From: Candidatus Dadabacteria bacterium
Lineage (GTDB): Bacteria; Desulfobacterota_D; UBA1144; Nemesobacterales; Nemesobacteraceae
Direction of reading: 5' to 3'
Length of the DNA: 64,000 nucleotides
Assembly: GCA_951812945.1 (NCBI GenBank)
Contig: CATOTB010000001.1
Location: forward strand, 488,198-552,197
The translations under genes and the position numbers were made by a program. Shown here piece after piece: positions 15,211 to 49,851 of the stretch (within the stretch, counting starts at the first letter, position 1; each line of letters opens with the position of its first letter). The notes under the pieces are model-generated. The model was not told the DNA's origin. It was given only the letters and a program-made list of their open reading frames with translations, and searched no databases.

Positions 15211-15352
15211 TTGTTTTGAAGGGACATTTTGAAGGGACAAGAAAAATAAGCGATATCAGGGAGGTATGAAGGGACAAGGGACAATGAAGGGACAACCGCT
15301 GTTTTTAGGTAATTTAAGCAGTTACTTAATTTTTTTGGGAAATTGTCCCTTT
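15211..15352 (+). repeat. array of GAAGGGACA(A) motifs (4 full + 1 partial direct, 1 inverted)
   Basis: direct copies at 15218, 15231, 15268, 15287 with a partial at 15277 and an inverted TTGTCCCTT at 15343. Confidence 0.7.
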
Positions 15353-15382
15353 AAGTTGACAGACTTTATTTAACGCAATTCG

Positions 15383-16684
15383 GTGTTATCCCGATTGCAA
15401 GAACGGGGCACCCTCCATTGCGTCCAGCGTCAAGACGATAAAATTGTCCTGTGGCGCGAGAAGCAGACGCGCCTGGCACAGAACAGGAGGCTCCGAGTCT
15501 CTGTGGATGCCGCCGCTATCATACTCTCGTCAGATAGCATAAAAGTCGGCGAGAGGATAAAAGTTTCCAATAACATTCTCGACAGTGAAACCGATTGGGA
15601 AGTCGCGAGGAAGGAGGAAACTTGCGACGTATTTATCCAACTCGAGCTCGTTCCTTTGCCCGACATTTATCTATCGGACCCCAGCGATCTTGACCGCCTG
15701 ACAGGAGAACTCAGTTATTTCCAGACACCTAGAAATCTCCACTTAAACGAGAGCTCCTTTAAGCCGCCTACTGACTTCTCTCAGACACATCTGGAACCAA
15801 TACGAAACCTGTTTGCGCAAACCAAGAGCGTCGGGTCGGGAGATGAAAGCGTCTTCGTCTGCGAATTAAGCTACGAGGTCCCTGCCGAAAATTACTCGGG
15901 AGCTCAAGTCTGGCTGGTTTTGGGGAACACCGGAACTCCTCAGCGAGTTACGGACGAAGGGCTGGTTGTTGACAGGCTCTCGACAACGTCACGAAAAGCT
16001 CGGTTCAACCTTCCTTTGGAGATCGCTTCCTATACGGTGGTCGTGTACTCAGTCTCGGAGAATAAGGAATTGCTCGGGTTTCCTGTTTCCTTTCTGGTAA
16101 ACACTACTCCGGTTGCAAGTGCCGGCACTGACAGGAGCGTAGGGGCTGGAGCATTCGTAATGCTAAATGGCTCAGGATCTCACGATCCGGATGGTGACAA
16201 TCTCACCTATTTCTGGGAACAGCTGTCGGGAGCGCCCGTATCGATCTCAAACCCGACCTCGGAGCGGGCCAGTTTTACGGCTCCTTCGACGAGCTCCAGC
16301 CACATCTTGGAATTTCAGCTGACGGTGAGTGATGGGACGACAAGTGCGACTGATTCCGTTGTGATCAATGTAGGGAGATATGTTCCGCCGCTTCCGCCCC
16401 AAGAACAGTGGGAACGACTTGGGGCCCCCACTGGGTTTCAGCGTTATTTTGAAGGGAGTCTGAATCAATCTCAGAGATACACCTGGAATCTTGTTCCTAA
16501 TGCTAGAGCTTACAGAATTAGCTACGTGCACGAAGGAAGCCGACGACAGAGCGACGTGGGAGAACCGCCTGCCGCCTTTCTTCAATCTGTACCATTCACA
16601 GGAGTGAGAATCCAGGCTCTCGCGAACGCTTCCTGGCTGCTAGGAACTATTCCATATCTTAATTCCGAGTGGACTTATTTGTGA
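15383..16684 (+). CDS. PKD-domain-containing hypothetical protein (GTG start, no signal peptide; possibly a gene fragment)
   Basis: PKD-like segment (AGAFVMLNGSGSHDPDGDNLTYFWEQLSGAP...FTAP...LTVSDG); start codon and N-terminus uncertain. Confidence 0.5.
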   Translation: MLSRLQERGTLHCVQRQDDKIVLWREKQTRLAQNRRLRVSVDAAAIILSSDSIKVGERIKVSNNILDSETDWEVARKEETCDVFIQLELVPLPDIYLSDPSDLDRLTGELSYFQTPRNLHLNESSFKPPTDFSQTHLEPIRNLFAQTKSVGSGDESVFVCELSYEVPAENYSGAQVWLVLGNTGTPQRVTDEGLVVDRLSTTSRKARFNLPLEIASYTVVVYSVSENKELLGFPVSFLVNTTPVASAGTDRSVGAGAFVMLNGSGSHDPDGDNLTYFWEQLSGAPVSISNPTSERASFTAPSTSSSHILEFQLTVSDGTTSATDSVVINVGRYVPPLPPQEQWERLGAPTGFQRYFEGSLNQSQRYTWNLVPNARAYRISYVHEGSRRQSDVGEPPAAFLQSVPFTGVRIQALANASWLLGTIPYLNSEWTYL

Positions 16685-16806
16685 GAACAAGACGTAGAAA
16701 AAGCGCTGTTGGGACGAAATGATCTCAAAGAATTTTCAGCATTAATCGGCTTTTTTAGTTAACATAACACCCCAGATTTTGTGAATTTCGTGGCAATTTC
16801 ATGTTA

Positions 16807-16814
16807 TAAATTTG
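16807..16814. repeat. 8-bp direct repeat TAAATTTG (putative target-site duplication, left)
   Basis: identical 8-mer immediately outside both terminal IRs. Confidence 0.5.
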
Positions 16815-16845
16815 GGGAATTATAAAGGAAAGTTGACAAAACTTC
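16815..16845. repeat. terminal inverted repeat (left) of the IS1595-family element
   Basis: 31/31 match to the reverse complement of 21812-21842. Confidence 0.7.
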
Positions 16846-16854
16846 GTAACTCAC

Positions 16855-17025
16855 TCATTTGACTTCAACAATTTTTGGGTTGCCTTTGCTGTCTTTTTGG
16901 AGGGAAAATCGGCGTTCTAAATCCTCTTTTTTCGGCTTCTTCGGACGCTCATGCTTTACCGGTCCCATGCCGAGCAATAGCTTGGCAGCCTCGTCTACCT
17001 GGTCCCATTCATCTTTCTTGCTCAT
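16855..17025 (-). CDS. small hydrophilic Lys-rich protein, 56 aa (below the ORF-track cutoff)
   Basis: hand translation MSKKDEWDQVDEAAKLLLGMGPVKHERPKKPKKEDLERRFSLQKDSKGNPKIVEVK; third in a co-oriented run of tiny ORFs. Confidence 0.35.
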   Translation of the reverse strand: MSKKDEWDQVDEAAKLLLGMGPVKHERPKKPKKEDLERRFSLQKDSKGNPKIVEVK

Positions 17026-17034
17026 TTGGTCTAC

Positions 17035-17283
17035 CTAAACTACATAAGACATTATGATTCCTGCGATAATCCCGCCCGTAAGGAGAATTAGGGGCCATGC
17101 TATTCCTATCGCAAGCACTGCGAGCATGTACAAAACGAAGCCCACGCCGAAGACTACCATGAGGGTTTGCTCAAAGCCTTTGTTTTCACCCCGCTGTTGG
17201 CGTTCCCAGTCCCTTCGCTTGGCGTTCCGCTTCAGGAGTTTCTGTCGCTTCTCATGCTCTTCCCATGTAAGTTTGCTTGCCAT
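17035..17283 (-). CDS. 82-aa small membrane protein (basic N-terminus, C-terminal TM hairpin)
   Basis: ORF with a Lys/Arg-rich N-terminal 40 aa followed by two hydrophobic helices. Confidence 0.45.
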   Translation of the reverse strand: MASKLTWEEHEKRQKLLKRNAKRRDWERQQRGENKGFEQTLMVVFGVGFVLYMLAVLAIGIAWPLILLTGGIIAGIIMSYVV

Positions 17284-17286
17284 CGT

Positions 17287-17505
17287 CTAAATTTCGACTA
17301 TTTCTTCCAAGCCCTCTCTGTGTGCCTTAATCTGGTCTTCAAACTCTTGGTTTGTAACTCTGTCCAGTATTTGCCCAATCTGAATCTGTCCTTTTGCCAG
17401 TCCTTTAATGCCAGACTCAATTCTGTCAAAGCGTTTGGTGAACTTCTCATCCAGTTCGTTTATTGCATCTAATACTTTTTTGTTATCGTCGTGAATGATT
17501 GACAT
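17287..17505 (-). CDS. 72-aa small acidic coiled-coil protein
   Basis: ORF; TATAAT box about 35 nt upstream on the minus strand; spaced 4 nt from the next ORF. Confidence 0.45.
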   Translation of the reverse strand: MSIIHDDNKKVLDAINELDEKFTKRFDRIESGIKGLAKGQIQIGQILDRVTNQEFEDQIKAHREGLEEIVEI

Positions 17506-17666
17506 GGTATTCTTGTCTCTGACACAGTTCTCTTATCTGTAATTATAGCCGGCAAAATTGGAACTGTCTGAGATTTGTTCCCCCTATTTTGGTTTTTCAG
17601 ATACGGAAACCATACCTGATTTTGCCGGCAAATTCAAGGTGTTAGAACCATCATTCTACTTCTACC

Positions 17667-18152
17667 TTACCGACTGCAAGTCCCACCTAAAAGGCTATCG
17701 TAGAACGAACTGCGACGGCAGGAAAGTTCAGGGTAGTCATCTGCACTGAAACCCTCGAAAGCTACCGTCCTTCCAGAAGCTAGCGACCAAGTGGCAAAGT
17801 AATTTCTAGACGGAAAGTCCATTGAGAGTCCGACGTATTCGTCTCCATACTGGTCTCGGTAGCCTGCTAGCATCCATGTTCCACTGGTTGTCCTGTCGTC
17901 AAAAAAATCCGTCAAGTAGGCGGCAACTGTACCGTCTTCGCAGAAAGCAAGGGCTTCATATACATCTTCGTCGTCACTACAGCTCCATATACCACTTCCC
18001 TGGATGAGAATCGCTGTGAGTTGAGCAATATCAGCGAGAGTCTCTTCACTCTCTCCTCCAGTTATTTCAGAAAATCCATCTGGAAGGTTATCTCCTCCCC
18101 CGCAACTGGTAACAAACACTAATACCAAGAAAAGAGACAAAATCGTCCTCAT
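17667..18152 (-). CDS. acidic Cys-containing lipoprotein, hypothetical
   Basis: lipoprotein signal LVFVTSC at the N-terminus. Confidence 0.6.
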   Translation of the reverse strand: MRTILSLFLVLVFVTSCGGGDNLPDGFSEITGGESEETLADIAQLTAILIQGSGIWSCSDDEDVYEALAFCEDGTVAAYLTDFFDDRTTSGTWMLAGYRDQYGDEYVGLSMDFPSRNYFATWSLASGRTVAFEGFSADDYPELSCRRSSFYDSLLGGTCSR

Positions 18153-18305
18153 AACATCCTCCTAAGTTTGGATTTGACCTCGGCAAAAAAGGGTGCCGGG
18201 CCTTGCTTACAACCAAAGAGACTTTGGACGTTCTGCTTATTTCCCAGACGGGTATTGTATTCACAGAGACCCGACAGGGCGGGTTCTCTTCAGTTGTAAG
18301 CAATT

Positions 18306-18334
18306 TTGACTATATCACAGAAGGGCGGTATAAT
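18306..18334 (+). promoter_or_regulatory. near-consensus sigma70 promoter TTGACT-N17-TATAAT driving the S1 protease gene
   Basis: hexamers and 17-nt spacer read directly. Confidence 0.5.
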
Positions 18335-18402
18335 CTATGAAAGTTTTAATCTTGTGAAACACCCCCTGCCGAGTACATTCTCCAAATTTGGCAAGTAAAA
18401 AA

Positions 18403-19212
18403 ATGAAAAGACATCTAATTATCGCAATTTTGGCAGTAATTCTTGTGGGAATTTATGCAGTGTTGCTACACGGAGAGACAAAGACACAAGCACGTGAAAT
18501 CCCAACCTCAAATATTCTGAACAGGATTCTCCCAATAAGAGTTGAGGTTAAAGAAGAATCTACTTTTAGAATTAACGAGGGAACAGTTTTCACAATAGAG
18601 GTGGATGGAAGACAATACTTGATAACTGCGAAGCATGTAACCAACCATCAAGCGGTGGAAGTGATAGAGATTTGGAGAAATGGTGGATGGACAGCAGTAA
18701 AGGTAAAAACCGTAGGAGTAGGGAAAGGAAATGAGGACATTATTGTATTAGCCGCAGATGAGAGACTAACTACCACCTTTGAAATAGAAATAGGGAGTGG
18801 CGGGATAGTATTAGGTCAAAATGTAAAATTCTTGGGATTCCCTCTCGATATTGAAGTATATATGACCCAAGCTAAGGAATGGAGAGTGCCTGTCGTAAAA
18901 GGCGGTATCCTTACCACAATTGAATCTGAGAAAGGCTCGTCCTGGTTGCTGGTAGACGGGCATGGCAACAAAGGATTTAGCGGAGGACCTGTAATATTCA
19001 AGCCACGTGAAGAAAACACTAAAACATGGAGGATTGCTGGAGTAATAAGCAGGTTTGAACCAGAAATCTTGTCTGTGATAGATAGCACAGGGAGAAAGAT
19101 AGAAGGCTTAGGGGTTGTAGGAAACTCCGGCATTATGGTGGCAACAGGAATTGAAGCAGCTTTGAAGCTAATTAAAGCAAACCCCATAGGATATCTCGTT
19201 AAAGAAAAGTGA
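18403..19212 (+). CDS. membrane-anchored trypsin-like (S1/chymotrypsin-fold) serine peptidase
   Basis: N-terminal TM anchor; catalytic His context TAKHV and Ser motif GFSGGPV; the track ORF begins at an upstream TTG (18388) and ATG 18403 is more likely. Confidence 0.7.
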   Translation: MKRHLIIAILAVILVGIYAVLLHGETKTQAREIPTSNILNRILPIRVEVKEESTFRINEGTVFTIEVDGRQYLITAKHVTNHQAVEVIEIWRNGGWTAVKVKTVGVGKGNEDIIVLAADERLTTTFEIEIGSGGIVLGQNVKFLGFPLDIEVYMTQAKEWRVPVVKGGILTTIESEKGSSWLLVDGHGNKGFSGGPVIFKPREENTKTWRIAGVISRFEPEILSVIDSTGRKIEGLGVVGNSGIMVATGIEAALKLIKANPIGYLVKEK

Positions 19213-19250
19213 ACGAAAGCCTAACTTACTAATATGACTAAACAATCTAC

Positions 19251-19258
19251 CCCCCCCC
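19251..19258 (+). repeat. homopolymeric C tract (C8 by the coordinate grid) in the 5' region of the methyltransferase gene
   Basis: read directly; lies between an upstream ATG (19235) and the conserved MTase N-terminal region. Confidence 0.6.
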
Positions 19259-19310
19259 TAAATCTAACTGGAAAGACAAGACAGTTTTTACGGGAGACAA
19301 TCTCCCCATA

Positions 19311-20480
19311 ATGCGCAGGATGAATTCCGACTGCGTAGACCTGATTTACTTAGACCCCCCTTTCAACAGCAAAACAAACTATGCTGCACCTATTGGTAGT
19401 CATGCGGCCGGTGCCGAGTTTAAGGATACTTGGACTCTCTATGACATAGATATTGTCTGGCTTGATTTACTTGAAGCCAAGCATCCAGCACTCAATCGAG
19501 TTATTCACGCTACTTTGACCAAGAGTGATAAATCTTATCTGATTTACATGGCGATTAGGTTGCTGGAAATGAGGCGGATACTGAAACCGGCCGGAGGCAT
19601 TTATCTTCACTGTGACCCAACAATGAGTCACTATTTGAAGCTGGTAATGGATGCTATATTCGGAAGAGAGAATTTTAGAAATGAAATTATTTGGGCTTAC
19701 ACGGGGCCAGGGTCTCCCAATATGAGGCAGTTTAACCGCAAGCACGATGTGATCTTCTGGTACTCAAACGGTGAAGACTGGACATTTAATGGGGATGCTG
19801 TTCGAGTATTGCATAAAAAACCTATTGGGGCTGGAGGCACATCTACAAAATGGCTGAAAGAGAAAGAAGATTTGGCGGAAAAATACAAAGGCGGGAAGAT
19901 TCCCGAGACATGGTGGACGAGGTTTTCTCCTGTCGGAAGGATTAAGGGAGAACGCACTGGTTATCCCACACAGAAACCGAGAAAGTTGTTAAAGCGAATA
20001 ATTGAAGCTAGTAGTCCAAGAGGGGGCATTGTATTTGACCCATTCTGTGGTTGTGCTACGACCTGCATAGCCGCAGAGGAATTAAACCGGCAATGGATAG
20101 GAATTGATATCTCGCCCAAAGCGGCGGAACTTGTACAAACCAGAATACTGAATGAACTAGGTTTTGCTGGACGTGAACATCAGATAATTCACCGCCAGGA
20201 CATTCCACAGAGAACAGATTTAGGAGAGATTCCAAAGTACAACTGTAAGGAGAACAAGAACAGATTGTATGGAGAGCAAGGTGGGCATTGCAACGGATGC
20301 AGAGAACACTTCCAAATGCGTCATTTAGAAGTGGACCACATCATTGCTCGCTCACAGGGTGGCACAGACCACATTGAGAATTTGCAAATGCTCTGTGGAA
20401 ACTGCAATCAGATTAAAGGCAATCGTGGACACGAGTACCTGTTGGCAAGAATGGAAGGGAGAAAAGTACCCTACGCATGA
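19311..20480 (+). CDS. beta-class DNA methyltransferase (DPPF motif IV preceding FDPFCG motif I) fused to a C-terminal HNH endonuclease domain
   Basis: DLIYLDPPF, FDPFCGCATT, then HLEVDHIIARSQGGTDHIENLQMLCGNCN; the conserved N-terminal region extends upstream of ATG 19311 and is frame-linked to ATG 19235 only if the C tract changes length. Confidence 0.85.
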   Translation: MRRMNSDCVDLIYLDPPFNSKTNYAAPIGSHAAGAEFKDTWTLYDIDIVWLDLLEAKHPALNRVIHATLTKSDKSYLIYMAIRLLEMRRILKPAGGIYLHCDPTMSHYLKLVMDAIFGRENFRNEIIWAYTGPGSPNMRQFNRKHDVIFWYSNGEDWTFNGDAVRVLHKKPIGAGGTSTKWLKEKEDLAEKYKGGKIPETWWTRFSPVGRIKGERTGYPTQKPRKLLKRIIEASSPRGGIVFDPFCGCATTCIAAEELNRQWIGIDISPKAAELVQTRILNELGFAGREHQIIHRQDIPQRTDLGEIPKYNCKENKNRLYGEQGGHCNGCREHFQMRHLEVDHIIARSQGGTDHIENLQMLCGNCNQIKGNRGHEYLLARMEGRKVPYA

Positions 20481-20492
20481 CCAAACTACGAA

Positions 20493-20741
20493 TCAGTAAA
20501 AAAACTTTGCAGTTAAAATTCCAGAAATTACACCGATAGCTATAGCTGGCCATTTATCAAGAAAATAAGCTTTTAGACTGGGATATGCAGATGCCCTTTT
20601 TTCTAACCACCAAATTATAATCCAAACTATGCCAACGATACCAAGAACTTCCCGTGCCTCGATACTTGAAAAAACTTTTGAAAGGAGATACGCCGCTGCG
20701 AAAGAAACTAGGAACTGCCTGAATGTAGGGAGATGATTCAT
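20493..20741 (-). CDS. 82-aa small membrane protein, hypothetical
   Basis: ORF with 2-3 hydrophobic helices. Confidence 0.35.
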   Translation of the reverse strand: MNHLPTFRQFLVSFAAAYLLSKVFSSIEAREVLGIVGIVWIIIWWLEKRASAYPSLKAYFLDKWPAIAIGVISGILTAKFFY

Positions 20742-20764
20742 TTTCTGTTCACAAAAGCGGAGGT

Positions 20765-21697
20765 CTAAGAAGTCAGTTTTTCAAAGGTAATGGTCTTGCC
20801 CACCATAGCACCGAACAGGGCGTTCAGTCTATCTTCTGTATCAACCTTGCAACTTCCTTCGCTCAAACGAAAAGCGAACTCGTTGATATAGGCACGCATG
20901 TGCTTCTTACTCCAGTTGTGGTAAACGCCGTTGTATCCACGCTTCATGACCGCCCATACGCTTTCAATCCCGTTGGTAGAAGCCATGCCATTTACGAATT
21001 CTTTCGCTGAATGATTGACTGTTCCGTGTTCAAAATCCTTCCCGAGTAATCCGCTATAGCCTTTATGTTCATCCGTAAACACGATGGAACCCTTAACGAC
21101 ATTTTCGCTTATCTCTCTTTCGAGGGTTTCCGCGTCCCGTCTTTCAATAGGAATTGCCTTAGTCTTGCCGCCACGTTCTCTCATGCCGAGTACGCAGGTC
21201 TTTCCAACAGGTCCACGTCCGGCGTGAAGCTTCTTGGATTCGTGTTTGTTTTTTTCGAGACCTCCCAGAAAAGTTTCGTCTATTTCCACAACTCCCTTCA
21301 AGGCTTCCATATCGCTTCCGCAGGCAAGACGCAGACGGTGAAGCATGTACCAAGCAGTGGGTTGGGAAACAGCCAGTTCCTTGCTTAGCTGGAGACTGCT
21401 TATGCCCTTTCTGGCTGTCATTAGCAGATAAGCGGCGAATATCCACTTGCGAAGGTCAATCTTTCCATACTCAAGCGGAGTTCCGGTGCGAGCGGTGAAA
21501 TACTTGCGACAATTCCCGCACCAGTAACGTCCAGGGTGTTTGAATTGAGGGGTGATCTTCTCGGTGCTACCGCACCTTGTGCAGTGCCTCTTGTTACCCC
21601 ATCTCTGATTCTCAAGATACTTGATAGCATCTTCCTCAGTAGGATATTTCTGCATCAACTCGAACAAGCTGATTATCTTTGCATGTTTCTTTTTCAT
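20765..21697 (-). CDS. IS1595-family (ISXO2-like) transposase with N-terminal zinc ribbon
   Basis: CxxC...CxxC zinc ribbon (HCTRCGST...WCGNCRKYF) followed by a DDE ISXO2-like domain; 310 aa. Confidence 0.85.
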   Translation of the reverse strand: MKKKHAKIISLFELMQKYPTEEDAIKYLENQRWGNKRHCTRCGSTEKITPQFKHPGRYWCGNCRKYFTARTGTPLEYGKIDLRKWIFAAYLLMTARKGISSLQLSKELAVSQPTAWYMLHRLRLACGSDMEALKGVVEIDETFLGGLEKNKHESKKLHAGRGPVGKTCVLGMRERGGKTKAIPIERRDAETLEREISENVVKGSIVFTDEHKGYSGLLGKDFEHGTVNHSAKEFVNGMASTNGIESVWAVMKRGYNGVYHNWSKKHMRAYINEFAFRLSEGSCKVDTEDRLNALFGAMVGKTITFEKLTS

Positions 21698-21811
21698 GAT
21701 GGTATAAGATACCTGAAAAAGAAGGGTTTGTCAACTCTTGTTCCTGTTTTTTAGGAGAGTTCTCAGTGACTTAGATATTTCTTGATTCTAGCTTCGGAAA
21801 TGGGTTCAATA

Positions 21812-21842
21812 GAAGTTTTGTCAACTTTCCTTTATAATTCCC
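21812..21842. repeat. terminal inverted repeat (right) of the IS1595-family element
   Basis: exact reverse complement of 16815-16845. Confidence 0.7.
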
Positions 21843-21850
21843 TAAATTTG
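21843..21850. repeat. 8-bp direct repeat TAAATTTG (putative target-site duplication, right)
   Basis: identical to 16807-16814. Confidence 0.5.
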
Positions 21851-21868
21851 GCAAGATCATTTTACCCG

Positions 21869-22054
21869 TTATACTTGGCGATCCGAACTTCGCTCGTACC
21901 GCGCTGCCCCAACCATCTCATCTGCTTCAGAGTCAAGGACCTTGTTCAATACTTCCTCTACCGTATCGGTGACTATGGAGCTTAGGTGACCCCTAAGCTC
22001 CTCGTGGTTAATCTGAATTACCTTTTTGGGGCTCTTCGCTGTATAATCTCTCAT
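21869..22054 (-). pseudogene. N-terminal 61-codon fragment of an IS256-family transposase
   Basis: LNKVLDSEADEMVGAARYERSSDRQ matches the conserved IS256/mutator-type N-terminal region; reading frame decays after the stop. Confidence 0.55.
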
Positions 22055-22077
22055 GGCGGTGTTTCCTCCATGTTAAA

Positions 22078-22109
22078 TAAATTTAGGTAATTACCCCTAT
22101 AACTAGCCA
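22078..22109. repeat. 32-bp perfect inverted repeat, copy A (23 bp upstream of the IS256-like transposase fragment)
   Basis: TAAATTTAGGTAATTACCCCTATAACTAGCCA is the exact reverse complement of 22505-22536. Confidence 0.7.
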
Positions 22110-22444
22110 AAAGTAAAATGAGGGAGCGGTTGCTGGAGGACGGCACTGTCCTTGGTGTTTTTTGTATAATATTCGAGTGTTTTTGGATCTAATAGGGGGG
22201 GTGTATAGACTTAAGTTTACAAGTCCTCCAAACCCTGTATCGCTTCCTCGAACCCGCGGTGTAGTGCTTTAAATTCCAAGAGCCATCTTACCCCGGCGAC
22301 ATTTTTGCTTCTCGTGGAAGCAGGTAATTCATCGGACTGAATTCATGTTGGGGAGGTTTGAGAGTTCCATTTACTCGAGTGGAGCAGGGGAGGCTTATTA
22401 GGACCAACCGTTCTGTATCATCCTGAAATAACTTAGTATTTACC

Positions 22445-22474
22445 TTGACAAACAGTTAGACAGAAATATAGAAT
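22445..22474 (+). promoter_or_regulatory. putative promoter TTGACA-N18-TAGAAT inside the IR-bounded 395-bp segment, facing the 22571 ORF
   Basis: hexamers read directly. Confidence 0.3.
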
Positions 22475-22504
22475 TACCGTTAAGTACTATTATGATGGAG
22501 CAAG

Positions 22505-22536
22505 TGGCTAGTTATAGGGGTAATTACCTAAATTTA
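22505..22536. repeat. 32-bp perfect inverted repeat, copy B
   Basis: exact reverse complement of 22078-22109. Confidence 0.7.
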
Positions 22537-22570
22537 AGAGCACTATTTATCTAACCGGATTCATGAAGAA

Positions 22571-24004
22571 ATGCCGCCTCTTTTTTTAATTTGCGAAAAA
22601 TTTAAAGCGTTATCGATGTTGGGGGATAGAAACATAAGACTGTCGTTTGCTGCGCGATACTTACTAGCTACCTTTTTTTTGACTTCTTTACCGTATATTT
22701 CCATCGGTCAATCTACAAATGAGCTTGTGGGAAACTTGGGCTCCGCTCTTACGGTCGGACAGATAATAAATCAGGCGTCCGATGCGGCAGATGATTTGGT
22801 TACGGAGGGGTTTGATCGTTTTGATAGTTCGGTCTTGCTGGCAGCGACTGAAGCGAGAGCCACTGTAAATCAAGTGTCACTTCAACTCGCCGACTCAATC
22901 AATCTTTCGGTAGAGCAATTGGACTCGCAACAACGCAGAGTTATCTCAGATCTAGAGTCTTTGACGACGACAATTACCGAGGCAATAGCAAAAGACGTTG
23001 CGGACATAGTTACGCCTATTCAGGGTGACATCCGGTTACTATTATCTCGAAATCCTGGCTTCATACGTATTTCAGGAGGATTTGCCACACGACAAGATAA
23101 GTATCTTGAGTTCCAACTCAAAGGCACCGCTCTGTCTCAAGCGGACATTGATAACTTCCAAGTTAATTCTGTAGAGTCCAAACCGAATGTTGTTTCTAGC
23201 GATGACACGCACGTTAAGATACGCATCCCCCTTGATGAGCCACCAATCGCTGATCTTTTAGGCTCTGGCGACAGCTTCGATGAACTGATCGAGATTCCGA
23301 TAAGCTTCGTTTTGAAGGAATGTGGTTTGCTCGGTATGTTTTGTAATTATGATCGGAAATTTTCGCTACTTGGCTATGTATTTCCGGAAAACGTTGGAAC
23401 TGTAAAAGCTGTATTTGACGGATGGATCTCGACGGAAGAGCGGATGCAACGTAAGCTAGAGTTTATAAGCGATAAGGTGAGAACGAGGGTGCGTCTTCTT
23501 CCTCCTGAAGTTCGAGCTGGGGATCGGCGGGACATATGGTCCATGACTCCTCACGATGGGTGGAGAATTGATACCCGGTCGGCCGATTTCGATTTCGTTA
23601 AATTATATGGAGGATGCAGCAATTCGCGATGTTCCGCATCATGGGAAGAAAAAACAGAACACATACTCCGAGTTAAAGCAAGGACCTCGTCTGATAGGAG
23701 GGTCGGCGTAACCTGTAAGACATCGACAACCATTAAGTTTTCGCAATGGCGCACCAATACCAATCGCCATACCCATGAGACGGATGCCGTTGAGATTGTA
23801 GTCGATGGAACTACGCATCTTCCTTTGGATAAAACCATAGGTCTAACTAACGCGCGCCTTTCTCATCTAGTGATCCAATCGCCGTTGTTTCGACGAGGAG
23901 AGGAGAGGATACTCCGAGATGGCCAAAAAATTGGTGGACTGCGAGTAGAATACGACACTGCAACTCAAACCGTCTTTCTTCACAGCTCTATGAACATGAA
24001 CTAA
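22571..24004 (+). CDS. hypothetical 477-aa protein with N-terminal membrane anchor
   Basis: long ORF with no family I recognise; hydrophobic segment near the N-terminus. Confidence 0.45.
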   Translation: MPPLFLICEKFKALSMLGDRNIRLSFAARYLLATFFLTSLPYISIGQSTNELVGNLGSALTVGQIINQASDAADDLVTEGFDRFDSSVLLAATEARATVNQVSLQLADSINLSVEQLDSQQRRVISDLESLTTTITEAIAKDVADIVTPIQGDIRLLLSRNPGFIRISGGFATRQDKYLEFQLKGTALSQADIDNFQVNSVESKPNVVSSDDTHVKIRIPLDEPPIADLLGSGDSFDELIEIPISFVLKECGLLGMFCNYDRKFSLLGYVFPENVGTVKAVFDGWISTEERMQRKLEFISDKVRTRVRLLPPEVRAGDRRDIWSMTPHDGWRIDTRSADFDFVKLYGGCSNSRCSASWEEKTEHILRVKARTSSDRRVGVTCKTSTTIKFSQWRTNTNRHTHETDAVEIVVDGTTHLPLDKTIGLTNARLSHLVIQSPLFRRGEERILRDGQKIGGLRVEYDTATQTVFLHSSMNMN

Positions 24005-24100
24005 TGCGGTTTTATCGAACAGATCCTCTATATCTGTTGTCACAGAAGGGGTCCGGTCGGGGAATTGTTATTTGTTTTTTTCGACTTTAATATTAAGAAG

Positions 24101-46157: not shown

Positions 46158-46231
46158 TGGGGCGTCGTCTAAAGGCAGGACACCGGGTTTTGGTCCCGGT
46201 AGTGGGGGTTCGAGTCCTCCCGCCCCAGCCA
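46158..46231 (+). tRNA. tRNA-Gln (anticodon UUG), 3' CCA encoded
   Basis: hand-folded cloverleaf: 7-bp acceptor stem TGGGGCG/CGCCCCA, 5-bp anticodon stem CCGGG/CCCGG with loop TTTTGGT, T-loop GGTTCGAGTCC. Confidence 0.8.
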
Positions 46232-46252: not shown

Positions 46253-48379
46253 GTGCCAAAGAATTCTCTTAAAGGACTTAACTCTTCCCAGATAGATGCC
46301 GTGAGCCACGGAGAAGGTTCTCTGCTGGTGCTTGCGGGTCCAGGCTCGGGGAAAACCAGAGTCATAGCCCACCGAATCGCCTACCTGCTGAACGATCTTT
46401 CTGTTCCTCCCGGAAATATTCTGGCCGTTACTTTTACCAACAAGGCAGCCGCTGAGATGAAGAAAAGAGCGGGAGAACTGGCGGGCGATCGGACAAGCGG
46501 TATCTGGATCGGCACCTTCCACTCGATCTGTCTTCGAATTCTCAAAATAGAGGCGGATTTTCTTGAGGGCTACACGAAGGATTTTGTCGTCTACGACCAG
46601 AACGATCAGCTCGGTCTCATAAAAAGCTGCATGAAGGAACTTGACTACGGGGAGAGCCTTTTTTCGCCCAAGGGCGTGCTTTCCGAATTTGACGCCGTTG
46701 AGAACCGAGGAGAGGTGTTTTTCAAGGATGATTTTTACGGCCGCGCTCTTAGGGAACTTTATGATTTCTGCAAAAGCGAGCTCATAAAGCGAAACGCCAT
46801 GACTTTTAACGATCTGCTTCGCCTTGCGAATAAACTTCTTTCTGAAAACGAGGAAGTCCGCTCCCGCTACCAGGACAGGTTCTCTCACATACTTGTCGAC
46901 GAGTATCAGGACACGAACGTTGCTCAGTACAGCTTCGTAAAAACCCTCTCCCAGCGTCACCGAAGCCTTTTCGTGGTGGGCGATGACAGCCAGTCGATTT
47001 ACGGGTGGAGAGGGGCCGACATAAACAATATCTTGAACTTCGAGAGAGATTTTTCGGGGGCCAGGGTTGTTAAGCTTGAGCGCAACTATCGCTCGACGTC
47101 CACCATACTTGGCATAGCGAACTCGGTGGCAAGTAAAAACCTCGGTAGAAAGGAGAAAAATCTCTGGACCGAGAACTCAGAGGGAGAAAAAGCCGTGGTT
47201 TTCAGGGCTGGCGACAATGCGGATGAGGCGCGGTTTTTGGCGGAGCGGATTTCTCATCTGGTCGAGTCCGGGGGTTTTTCCTGGGGCGATGTGGGGGTTT
47301 TTTACAGGGCTAACTTTCAGTCAAGGGTAATTGAGGAGGGACTAAGAGCCGGGAGAATCCCCTACAGGATAGTATCGGGAGTCGGCTTTTATCAGAGGGC
47401 CGAAATAAAGGACATAGTTGCCTACCTGCGGCTGATTCAGAACTCGAGGGACGACGTAAGTTTTGAGAGAATAGTAAATGTTCCGCCGAGAAAAATAGGG
47501 GGAGCCACGCTTCAGAAATTGCGCGGAGTTTCGGAAGTGGGCGGATTCCCTCTTCTCGAAGCGATTGAATACTGCCAGGAGCAGAAGCTTCTCTCAAGCC
47601 GTGCGCTCGGCGCGCTCTCCCGGTTTCTTGACATCGTAAAGGAGCTTCGCTCGGCGGCGGAAAGCCAGCCTGCGGCTGGGGTTATCAAGAGGCTTGTTGA
47701 GCGCACCGGTTATCTGGATTACCTCGGGGAGGATCACCAAAGGGCGGAAAACGTGAAAGAACTCTTAAAAGCGGCTGAGGGCTTGGGGGATATGATCCTT
47801 TCTGATTTTCTCGACCTCGTGCTGCTCGCTACGGACGAGGACAGGGAGGACTCTGGAGAGGAAAAAGTTTCCCTGATGACAATTCACGCGGCCAAGGGGC
47901 TTGAGTTCCCCGTGGTGTTTGTGGTCGGGATAAACGAAGATTTGCTTCCCCACTATAGATCCGCAGGCACTCTTGAAGGACTTGAGGAAGAGAGAAGGCT
48001 TTTCTATGTAGCGATTACCCGCGCCAAGCGCCTGCTTTACCTCAGTTACGCTTCCCAAAAGACTGCTTCGAGTGGCGCATACAGTAGTGCTCGCGGGTCG
48101 GTTTTTCTGGATGACCTACCGCCGGAGCATGTAGTCTACGAATCCCGCAGGAAAGAAATTTCCGATAGGGGCTCCGACCGCTCTGCCGGTTCGTCCCCAC
48201 CCCCGCAAGAGTTTTGGGACGAAGGTAAAAGCTTAAAACCCGGCCAGAGGGTTACACACCACATCTTCGGTCCCGGGGTCATTAAACGGATTGAGGGTAA
48301 GGGAAATGAGGTAGTGGTCACGGTTGATTTTTTCGGCGCTGGCGTGAAAAAAATCGTTGCGAGTTATTTTACCGCCTAG
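46253..48379 (+). CDS. UvrD/PcrA/Rep-family ATP-dependent DNA helicase
   Basis: Walker A GPGSGKT, UvrD motifs throughout, C-terminal Tudor-like tail; start moved to GTG 46253 because the track ORF overlaps the tRNA. Confidence 0.88.
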   Translation: MPKNSLKGLNSSQIDAVSHGEGSLLVLAGPGSGKTRVIAHRIAYLLNDLSVPPGNILAVTFTNKAAAEMKKRAGELAGDRTSGIWIGTFHSICLRILKIEADFLEGYTKDFVVYDQNDQLGLIKSCMKELDYGESLFSPKGVLSEFDAVENRGEVFFKDDFYGRALRELYDFCKSELIKRNAMTFNDLLRLANKLLSENEEVRSRYQDRFSHILVDEYQDTNVAQYSFVKTLSQRHRSLFVVGDDSQSIYGWRGADINNILNFERDFSGARVVKLERNYRSTSTILGIANSVASKNLGRKEKNLWTENSEGEKAVVFRAGDNADEARFLAERISHLVESGGFSWGDVGVFYRANFQSRVIEEGLRAGRIPYRIVSGVGFYQRAEIKDIVAYLRLIQNSRDDVSFERIVNVPPRKIGGATLQKLRGVSEVGGFPLLEAIEYCQEQKLLSSRALGALSRFLDIVKELRSAAESQPAAGVIKRLVERTGYLDYLGEDHQRAENVKELLKAAEGLGDMILSDFLDLVLLATDEDREDSGEEKVSLMTIHAAKGLEFPVVFVVGINEDLLPHYRSAGTLEGLEEERRLFYVAITRAKRLLYLSYASQKTASSGAYSSARGSVFLDDLPPEHVVYESRRKEISDRGSDRSAGSSPPPQEFWDEGKSLKPGQRVTHHIFGPGVIKRIEGKGNEVVVTVDFFGAGVKKIVASYFTA

Positions 48380-49851
48380 GAGAGGCAGCTCACGACGAGG
48401 TTTTTGGCCCACTCGGGAGAATCCGCCGCGTAGCTCTCACACCCGGGCTGATCCGAGAAGGGATTCTCGAAGATCCTTCTTACTTTTTCTATCTCCGAAT
48501 AGTCTCCCTGTTCCAGAGCCTCCCTTATTGCGGTCTCCGTTATATGGTTTCTCAAGACGTACCTTGGATTGACGGAATCCATGCGCTTCTTTCTCTCGGG
48601 ATCAGGAAGCGAATTTTCCCTGAGTTCCCCGGCGTACTCACGGAACCACTGCTGCCATCGCTCTGAAGTTTCTGAGAGCTCCAAGAGCCACGGGTTTTCC
48701 CCGAAAGAACCGTCGCGCCTTACATCCGAGATGTTTCGAAGGAAGATATGGTAGTCTGTTTTGAATTCGGCGAGCACCCCTAGAGTCTTTTCGATGAACC
48801 GCAGGGATTCCTTTTTTTCCTTTTCAAAACCGAACTTGCGCAGCATGAGTTCTCTGTAGCTCTCGGAGAACGCCTTGTTGTAGGTCTCAATCGCGTTTAT
48901 GGCCTGTTCTTCGCCCGCAAGGCCGTCGAGGCATTTTGTGAATTTCTCAAGGTTCCACCGCGCGATTGCGGGCTGGTTTCCGTAGCTGTACCTGCCGAAA
49001 TGATCCGAGTGGTTTGAGACGTGATCCCTGTCGAACGTCTCGAGGAATCCGTACGGTCCGTAATCAATGGTAAGGCCCGTTACGGACATGTTGTCGGTGT
49101 TCATTACGCCGTGGGTGAAGCCGAAAGCCTGCCACTTTGCGATCGTGGAAGCCGTTTTTTCGGCCATTGCGGACAAAAAGAGCCCGTAGCCTTCCTCTGC
49201 TTGGCGGGGAATCTCGGGGTAATGGCGGGCGATTACGTAATCCGCAAGCGCCCGGACGTTTTCCGGTTCCCCCCGGTGATAAAAGCCTTCAAAAGAACCG
49301 AAACGCACGTGAGTTTCCGCGACCCGCAACATCATCGCGGCGGGTTCCCTGGTTTCCCTCTCGATTTTCTCCGTGCTTCCCACCACGCAGAGCGCCCTTG
49401 TGGACGGAATTCCCAGATGATGGAGAGCTTCGCTCCCGAGATACTCTCTTATGGAAGATCTGAGCGTTGCTCTTCCGTCAAAGCCTCTTGAAAATCTTGT
49501 GGTTCCGCACCCCTTGAGGTGAAGATCCCATCTGCGGTTGCGCTCGTCGATTATCTGCCCGAGCAGAAGCGCCCTTCCGTCTCCAAGGTGAGGGTTATAG
49601 ACCCCGAACTGCCACCCGGCGTAGTACATTGCGAGGGGGTCTGCGCCCGCAAGGGGTTTTTTTCCGCAGAGATACTCGGCCAGAAGGGGGTTTTGTTTTT
49701 CGCCGGAGTCTATGCCGAGTTCGTCGGCTAGGTTTTCATTGAACGCAACCACATGGGGGCTTTCAAAGGGGACAGGGTCTTTTTTCTGGTAGAACTCTGA
49801 CGGCAATTCCGCGTAAGCGTTTTCAAAGCGAAGGTTCGTTATTTTCCTCAT
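48376..49851 (-). CDS. selO: protein adenylyltransferase SelO (YdiU/UPF0061)
   Basis: full-length SelO family pattern, 491 aa. Confidence 0.82.
   Translation of the reverse strand: MRKITNLRFENAYAELPSEFYQKKDPVPFESPHVVAFNENLADELGIDSGEKQNPLLAEYLCGKKPLAGADPLAMYYAGWQFGVYNPHLGDGRALLLGQIIDERNRRWDLHLKGCGTTRFSRGFDGRATLRSSIREYLGSEALHHLGIPSTRALCVVGSTEKIERETREPAAMMLRVAETHVRFGSFEGFYHRGEPENVRALADYVIARHYPEIPRQAEEGYGLFLSAMAEKTASTIAKWQAFGFTHGVMNTDNMSVTGLTIDYGPYGFLETFDRDHVSNHSDHFGRYSYGNQPAIARWNLEKFTKCLDGLAGEEQAINAIETYNKAFSESYRELMLRKFGFEKEKKESLRFIEKTLGVLAEFKTDYHIFLRNISDVRRDGSFGENPWLLELSETSERWQQWFREYAGELRENSLPDPERKKRMDSVNPRYVLRNHITETAIREALEQGDYSEIEKVRRIFENPFSDQPGCESYAADSPEWAKNLVVSCLS

Follow-up and report, generated by a model that had tools for sequence, protein, structure and literature searches.

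The locus analysed here lies in a 64-kb window (the whole stretch of DNA that was examined, 64,000 nucleotides) from a Candidatus Dadabacteria bacterium. On the plus strand, the features follow one another in this order: a PKD-domain gene, a repeat denoted B which is split by a 5-kb element, an IS256 copy which is split by a 443-bp element, and a gene encoding a 477-aa protein. The first-pass annotation had described the site as one of nested insertions, and this was borne out, with the 5-kb element residing in repeat B and the 443-bp element in IS256; its remark on a hotspot is fair. The features are listed below in window coordinates, and the L numbers designate the loci in other sequences with which they were compared.

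16815-21842, minus strand: IS1595-family element with passenger genes, 5,028 bp (transposase domains, repeats, empty sites)
21843-21873, minus strand: end of the IR-bounded repeat B, TATAACGGGTAAAATGATCTTGCCAAAT (100% identical in L013 and L014, 91% in L012)
21876-22085, minus strand: IS256 remnant, proximal part, with the leader and the first ~60 transposase codons (96.2% to L007, also found in L008)
22078-22085, no strand: left TAAATTTA copy, 8-bp target-site duplication (flank overlap in L007, 9970-9977)
22086-22528, plus strand: probable non-autonomous IS1595-family element, MITE-like, 443 bp (absent from L007 and L008; termini match the IS of OZ252213)
22086-22109, plus strand: left terminal inverted repeat GGTAATTACCCCTATAACTAGCCA, 24 bp (perfect against 22505-22528)
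22445-22474, plus strand: sigma-70-like promoter match TTGACA-N18-TAGAAT (11/12 positions)
22505-22528, minus strand: right terminal inverted repeat, 24 bp (perfect against 22086-22109)
22529-22536, no strand: right TAAATTTA copy, 8-bp target-site duplication (blastn comparison with L007)
22529-22615, minus strand: IS256 remnant, distal part, the left end with the IS256 terminal repeat (93% to L007 9977-9891)
22616-24004, plus strand: gene of unknown function, 462-477 aa, with a signal-peptide-like N-terminus, adjoining the IS256 left end

The 5-kb element encodes a transposase (20765..21697, minus strand) with matches to PF12762 (4.5e-41), PF12760 and NF033547 (2.9e-56). Its apparent 38-nt 'inverted repeat' is in fact composed of perfect terminal repeats of 31 bp (GGGAATTATAAAGG...) and a duplication, TAAATTTG, which is a nearly palindromic 8-bp direct repeat found at 16807-16814 and 21843-21850. 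In three related contigs (L012, L013 and L014) only a single TAAATTTG is present, which makes them empty sites for the 5-kb element, and repeat B there runs straight on into the sequence of window positions 16741-16815. The 5-kb element is thus inserted into repeat B at TAAATTTG. Its passengers include an N6/N4 DNA methyltransferase fused to an HNH nuclease (19311-20480), a trypsin-like peptidase (18388-19212) and several small ORFs without a family. Repeat B itself (~16705-16814 and 21843-21873 in the window; 2411-2611 in L012; 3950-4206 in L013) occurs in several copies and orientations in the related contigs, and both L013 and L014 terminate within it.

To the right of repeat B lies a 61-codon ORF (22054..21869, minus strand) containing ...EADEMVGAARYERS..., in which the IS256-type N-terminus noted previously is indeed present. 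Its match to the Pfam family Transposase_mut (PF00872) is below the threshold (E=6.6e-4, 19.1 bits against a cut-off of 21, covering profile positions 12-58 of 379), and a protein search with the 61-aa sequence returned short relatives only (P0001-P0008). The closest of these, P0007 (98% identity), led to a pair of loci from other assemblies that each hold an IS256 copy: L007, which is a contig of 1.68 Mb, and L008. Positions 21876-22085 of the window are 96.2% identical to L007 10179-9970 over 210 nt (blastn), and the 353-aa ORF of L007 matches PF00872 with E=6.6e-96 and 321.9 bits. Despite its own sub-threshold score, the ORF can therefore be assigned to the IS256 family through its 96% DNA identity to a copy with a strong PF00872 match, and on this sequence comparison we regard the ORF and its flanks as an IS256-family remnant. 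The ORF had been said to decay after its N-terminus; instead, the IS256 similarity stops abruptly at 21873-21876, where repeat B begins, the adjoining 23-31 bp (TATAACGGGTAAAATGATCTTGCCAAAT...) being one end of that repeat. The IS256 copy is a dead remnant, cut off after about codon 60. The distance between the end of the ORF and the junction with the 5-kb element, given previously as 20-25 bp, depends on the boundary chosen, being 19 bp to the extended repeat (21849) and 26 bp to the true terminus (21842).

Repeat B, in which 21843-21850 constitute the TAAATTTG duplicate belonging to the 5-kb element, directly adjoins the truncated IS256, which suggests that the truncation came about by insertion of repeat B, followed by recombination or deletion. 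No continuation of IS256 was found left of 16807, past the 5-kb element, where repeat B and the 3' flank of the PKD-domain gene are located. All eight database relatives of the IS256 N-terminus (P0001-P0008) are short ORFs of 42-104 aa, and L007 (10001-11200) and L008 have in common an in-frame TAA at codon 43. The sampled members of this IS256 lineage all look pseudogenised, judging from their reading frames.

The two inverted arms at 22078-22109 and 22505-22536 were found as originally described: 32 nt each, 100% complementary, with 395 nt between them, and with the spacing of 23 bp from the ATG of the 61-codon ORF to the first arm. The window contains no further copy of the 32-nt arm at <=3 mismatches, and the same search gave 0 in 100 shuffles. 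In each arm, the palindrome TAAATTTA precedes GGTAATTACCCC..., which is the layout of the repeat of the 5-kb element. Since that repeat combines a terminal repeat with an 8-bp duplication, the common layout suggested an IS1595-type rather than an IS256-type origin for the 32-bp repeat. Its 32 bp are made up of a 24-bp terminal inverted repeat and an 8-bp palindromic target-site duplication, and because the target TAAATTTA is palindromic, the apparent inverted repeat is lengthened from 24 to 32 bp. A general caution follows for other loci: palindromic target duplications inflate apparent inverted repeats.

The IS256 copies L007 and L008 provide the sites without the insert. They contain the window's flanks around one TAAATTTA, reading ...GATAAATAGTGCTCT TAAATTTA TTTAACATGGAGGAAACACCGCC ATG, with TTTAACATGGAGGAAACACCGCC followed by ATGAGAGATTAT..., and the 443-bp insert is absent. 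In the window, the 443-bp insert separates the proximal and distal parts of the IS256 remnant. The distal part (22529-22615) is 93.1% identical to L007 9977-9891 (blastn), and the two blastn segments shared by the window and L007 overlap by exactly 8 bp, L007 9970-9977, which is TAAATTTA. These single-TAAATTTA flanks show that the 443-bp segment is an insertion, and the comparison of sequences gives the classical empty-site proof that the segment was inserted and 8 bp of target duplicated. The outer limit of the IS256 DNA was given by L012, an IS256-free relative, whose alignment to the window begins exactly at 22616. Thus the left terminus of IS256 is at 22615, beyond the 443-bp insert.

To find other occurrences of the termini, the terminal 20-mer was scanned against 185,579 species-representative genomes. 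Four loci were obtained (L001-L004). Three of them are real, all in MAGs of Ca. Dadabacteria or Thermodesulfobacteriota: L002 in a Ca. Dadabacteria MAG, and L003 and L004 in the Thermodesulfobacteriota MAG chromosome OZ252213. The repeat, for which recurrence elsewhere had been proposed as a check, therefore does occur in other places. The remaining hit, L001, is a chance match inside a Bacteroidota coding sequence. A metagenome scan with the same 20-mer gave two matches, L005 and L006, both by chance and both rejected as element copies; one of them lies in eukaryote-like DNA, the other within a coding sequence. No complete copy of the 443-bp element was present in either the species-representative or the metagenome scan.

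The copy L003 of OZ252213, retrieved with more flank as L009, is a complete element of 2,660 bp with the ends GGCAATTACCCCTATAACTAGCCAAAAG and GGTAATTACCCCTATAACTAGCCAAAAC, which form a 27-bp repeat with 1 mismatch; the 8-bp duplication AAAAAATA lies on either side of the element. Its transposase, 315 aa long, matches PF12762 (E=1.2e-40) and PF12760, the IS1595 DDE and zinc-ribbon domains. The 24-bp terminal repeat from the window matches this element at 24/24 positions at one end and 23/24 at the other; the likeness of the two elements reaches 27-28 nt at their left ends, and the left terminal repeat GGTAATTACCCCTATAACTAGCCA is identical to ends in L003/L009 and in L004. The window is syntenic with the OZ252213 chromosome at ~80-86% DNA identity, and its positions 48481-48488 are the uninterrupted target, or empty site, of the OZ252213 element. 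The IS of OZ252213 sits in the 3' part of a gene for SelO, a protein adenylyltransferase (L009 1-1325); the SelO gene containing this empty site is intact in the window (48376-49851, minus strand).

Transposases 79-82% identical to that of OZ252213 led to two further elements, L010 (2,841 bp) and L011 (2,838 bp). Both have GGGAATTATCCCTTTAATTAGCCA at their ends, are flanked by 8-bp AT-rich duplications and carry a DNA methyltransferase gene as passenger. The two copies of the duplication flanking L010 differ at one base. Ends of the form GGnAATTA... and 8-bp AT-rich duplications are common to L010, L011, the outer element of L004 and the 5-kb element of the window, and an alignment of 15 ends gave the common pattern GGnAATTA...TAA.T...A. 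The 8-bp duplication, which had been recommended as something to look for in other copies, is thus a regular companion of the related elements, that of OZ252213 included. As a group, the full-length relatives (L009, L010, L011, the L004 outer element and the 5-kb element) measure 2.7-5 kb and carry passenger genes besides their 8-bp AT-rich duplications. The ISNwi1 subgroup of the IS1595 family in ISfinder has ends of the type 'ggnnatTAT' and an 8-bp DR. To judge by the ends GGTAATTAC / GGGAATTAT, which fit this consensus, and by the passenger genes of the full-length relatives, the elements described here presumably belong to that subgroup.

The 443-bp element has a G+C content of 42.9%, compared to 49.6% for the window, and its longest ORF is 39 aa; it is non-coding, which distinguishes it from the passenger-carrying IS1595-family insertion sequences. 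Its interior gave no significant tblastn match to the transposases and passenger proteins of the full-length relatives, and blastn detected no similarity to the DNA of the full-length elements past the ends. A distant blastn search of a plasmid collection with the 443-bp element gave no match. An Rfam scan by E-value over 21800-22700 returned no family, and the scan of the whole window at gathering thresholds returned only a tRNA at 46158. The element shows no sign of being a structured RNA: its single-strand fold pairs through the terminal repeats only and is otherwise unremarkable (z = -2.25).

One complete copy of the 443-bp element is present in the 64-kb window. The right end of L002 has the subterminal sequence CTTGCT.CAT..., like that of the 443-bp element and absent from the ends of the full-length IS; the 16 subterminal nt at the right end of the 443-bp element match L002 at 12/16. 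The interior of L002 resembles that of the 443-bp element weakly, with a local score of 54 against 31 ± 4.8 for shuffles, whose maximum was 50 (200 shuffles), and, by reference to a paralogous intergenic region, the remnant is bounded at about L002 position 2114. From these alignments, L002 probably contains part of a copy in decay, with subterminal and interior sequence in common, the interior likeness being weak. The presence of the short-form subterminal sequence in L002 suggests that the short form is found in more than one genome, so that it probably exists in at least one genome besides that of the window.

Taken together, these findings lead us to interpret positions 22086-22528 as a 443-bp non-autonomous, MITE-like transposable element of the IS1595 family lying in the leader of a dead IS256 copy, a reading to which we give a probability of roughly 0.92. 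The other readings of the repeat can be weighed against the same comparisons. The first-pass annotation had considered the first 32-bp repeat as the IS256 left end and the second as a back-to-back solo IS256 end, or else the pair as the termini of an IS256-derived MITE. A repeat 23 bp upstream of an IS256-type ATG is at roughly the place where an IS end could be expected. However, the near-intact copies L007 and L008 are without the repeat and run on with 79 shared IS256 bases, which in the window lie beyond the insert. The terminal repeats of L007, AATCTTCCGCAAATTAAAA / TTTAAATTTGCGAAAAATT, are imperfect, ~1.35 kb apart and unrelated to the 32-bp repeat, and the latter occurs as the termini of IS1595-family elements. 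An intact IS256 copy with ends unlike the repeat had itself been named as the outcome refuting an IS256 end, and this is the outcome that L007 presents. With the comparison to L007 and L008 and the terminus at 22615, the 32-bp repeat is refuted as an IS256 terminus, and we attach practically no weight to that reading. The suggestion of a MITE-like derivative was correct as to the kind of element but not as to its derivation from IS256, the termini being those of the IS1595 family.

Perfect inverted repeats around a segment of a few hundred bp, with a promoter-like site aimed at a putative secreted or surface gene, also recall the invertons of the fimS type or the Bacteroides type. Here an invertase would flip the 395-bp promoter-bearing segment and thereby switch the 477-aa gene on and off. 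This we consider very improbable, since the segment and one TAAATTTA are absent from the paralogous sites, as befits an insertion with target duplication but not a resident switch, and since, in other places, elements that encode a transposase are bounded by the same 24 bp. The arm length of 24-32 bp also fits IS ends. Moreover, no serine or tyrosine recombinase domain was detected in the ORFs scanned, which included every ORF of at least 150 aa in 10790-32662, and the transposase 20765..21697 was the only recombination enzyme among them. A different question is whether the element is a one-off defective derivative, that is, a full-length IS that lost its interior or captured unrelated DNA no later than the time of this insertion, present as a single copy and not as an amplified MITE. 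The occurrence of one complete copy in 64 kb, the lack of a complete copy in two public scans and an interior unrelated to the known full-length relatives are all in keeping with such an origin. By contrast, the target duplication and the empty site signify that the element either transposed as a 443-bp unit or arose by a deletion in place that spared both ends, and the partial copy L002 shares the MITE-type subterminal CTTGCT.CAT... that full-length IS ends lack. We therefore judge a one-off derivative unlikely, though it deserves to be taken seriously.

If the 443-bp segment is indeed a MITE-like IS1595-family element, family knowledge suggests how it came to its present place. A cognate DDE transposase of the OZ252213 type, recognising 24-27-bp ends, would have mobilised it in trans; a staggered 8-bp cut would have been made at the AT-rich palindrome TAAATTTA, and gap repair would then have duplicated the target. 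The landing site is given by the comparison with L007 as the IS256 leader, between the left terminal repeat (terminus 22615) and the transposase ATG (22054). No cognate transposase of the OZ252213 type was found in the window. The transposase of the 5-kb element is 41% identical to that of OZ252213, and the ends of the 5-kb element diverge from those of the 443-bp type after about 9 nt; cross-mobilisation of the 443-bp element by the 5-kb element's transposase is possible but unsupported. The insertion of the 5-kb element at TAAATTTG lies 236 bp from the 443-bp element. Two different IS1595-family elements have hit TAAATTTR targets 236 bp apart, which may reflect sequence-specific targeting; such targeting, if real, could be exploited.

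The outward-facing promoter reported previously is present as a sequence match. The TTGACA-N18-TAGAAT site points out of the right end of the 443-bp element toward the 477-aa ORF, and no terminator-like site was found between it and 22616. Counting both strands, the 64-kb window has only two sites with at least 11/12 positions matching. Of the composition-matched shuffles of the 443 bp, 1.4% contain an 11/12 site. A general promoter scan of the 1.1-kb region returned no more sites than were found in shuffles. Transcripts from this putative promoter could extend through the 87 bp of the IS256 end and enter the 477-aa gene. One may then imagine the element as a portable promoter: IS256 would have cut the 477-aa gene off from its upstream region, and the MITE in the leader would drive the gene via its outward site. 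This scenario appears to us rather improbable.

The 477-aa gene matches no Pfam or NCBIfam family. Look-ups by exact protein sequence with its product, from either of two starts, and with the transposase of the 5-kb element returned no record, so that the genome of the window is absent from the collection consulted. Its relative in L012 is 95.8% identical and aligned from 22616. The start codon of the 91%-identical homologue P0129 (L012 position 912, after GGGGGAT) corresponds to ATA in the window, at 22634-22636, and the only in-frame ATGs upstream are those at 22616, adjoining the IS256 terminus, and 22571, inside IS256 DNA. The left terminus of IS256 at 22615 lies 18 bp upstream of the ATG position used in L012. 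Judging from the sequence, translation initiation of the 477-aa gene may be impaired or relocated. The similarity of the gene to its relatives stops at window position 24028, and in each of four contexts (the window, L012, L013 and L014) it has different neighbours on both sides, indicating that it lies in a variable region rich in mobile elements.

The 443-bp element is ordinary mobile-DNA debris of a known kind, for IS1595-associated MITEs have been reported before. The ISHwa6-associated IS1595-family MITE of Haloquadratum walsbyi measures 165 bp, with a 25-bp IR and an 8-bp DR (PMC3852290, Table 4). The two are alike in being short and non-coding, with terminal repeats of ~24-25 bp of the IS1595-family type and an 8-bp target duplication. 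They differ in that the 443-bp element is larger, has been seen as one full copy, and resides in a Dadabacteria-like Thermodesulfobacteriota host rather than in a haloarchaeon, and their sequences are unrelated. With respect to the IS256 family (PF00872), the recipient DNA retains the leader, ~60 N-terminal codons and the left terminal repeat; the 32-bp repeat is no part of it, and the IS256 copy is a ~290-bp 5' fragment split by the insert. The resemblance to fimS-type and Bacteroides-type invertons ends with the promoter-like site between inverted repeats, the 443-bp segment being an insertion with target duplication and transposon-end repeats and with no recombinase domain in the ORFs scanned across 10790-32662.

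Two practical consequences can be named. The annotation of the locus is mended: the IS256 end is at 22615, the ATG at 22571 belongs to IS256 DNA, and what read as a '32-bp IR' is made up of a 24-bp repeat and a duplicated palindromic target. An IS1595-type family is also documented in Dadabacteria-like genomes, in full-length forms with passenger genes and in a miniature form.

Two minor observations concern further ends of this type. At 15338-15361 the window contains a solo IS1595-like end, GGAAATTGTCCCTTTAAGTTGACA, which agrees with the end of the L010 element at 19/24 positions. The PKD-domain ORF at 15383 follows 21 bp downstream, and the window yielded no partner for this end. In OZ252213, the locus L004 (463-4431, 487-1011) has a GGTAATTACC... 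end, and a membrane-protein-like ORF of 151 aa comes after it. This end is nested within another IS1595-like element, 24 bp in from that element's own end; the outer element has the duplication AACATATT. The inner segment has direct TAAATAAAAA repeats at its flanks and finishes ...ATAACTAGCCA, which is not an inverted end; such an arrangement may reflect an insertion that was one-ended or has been rearranged.
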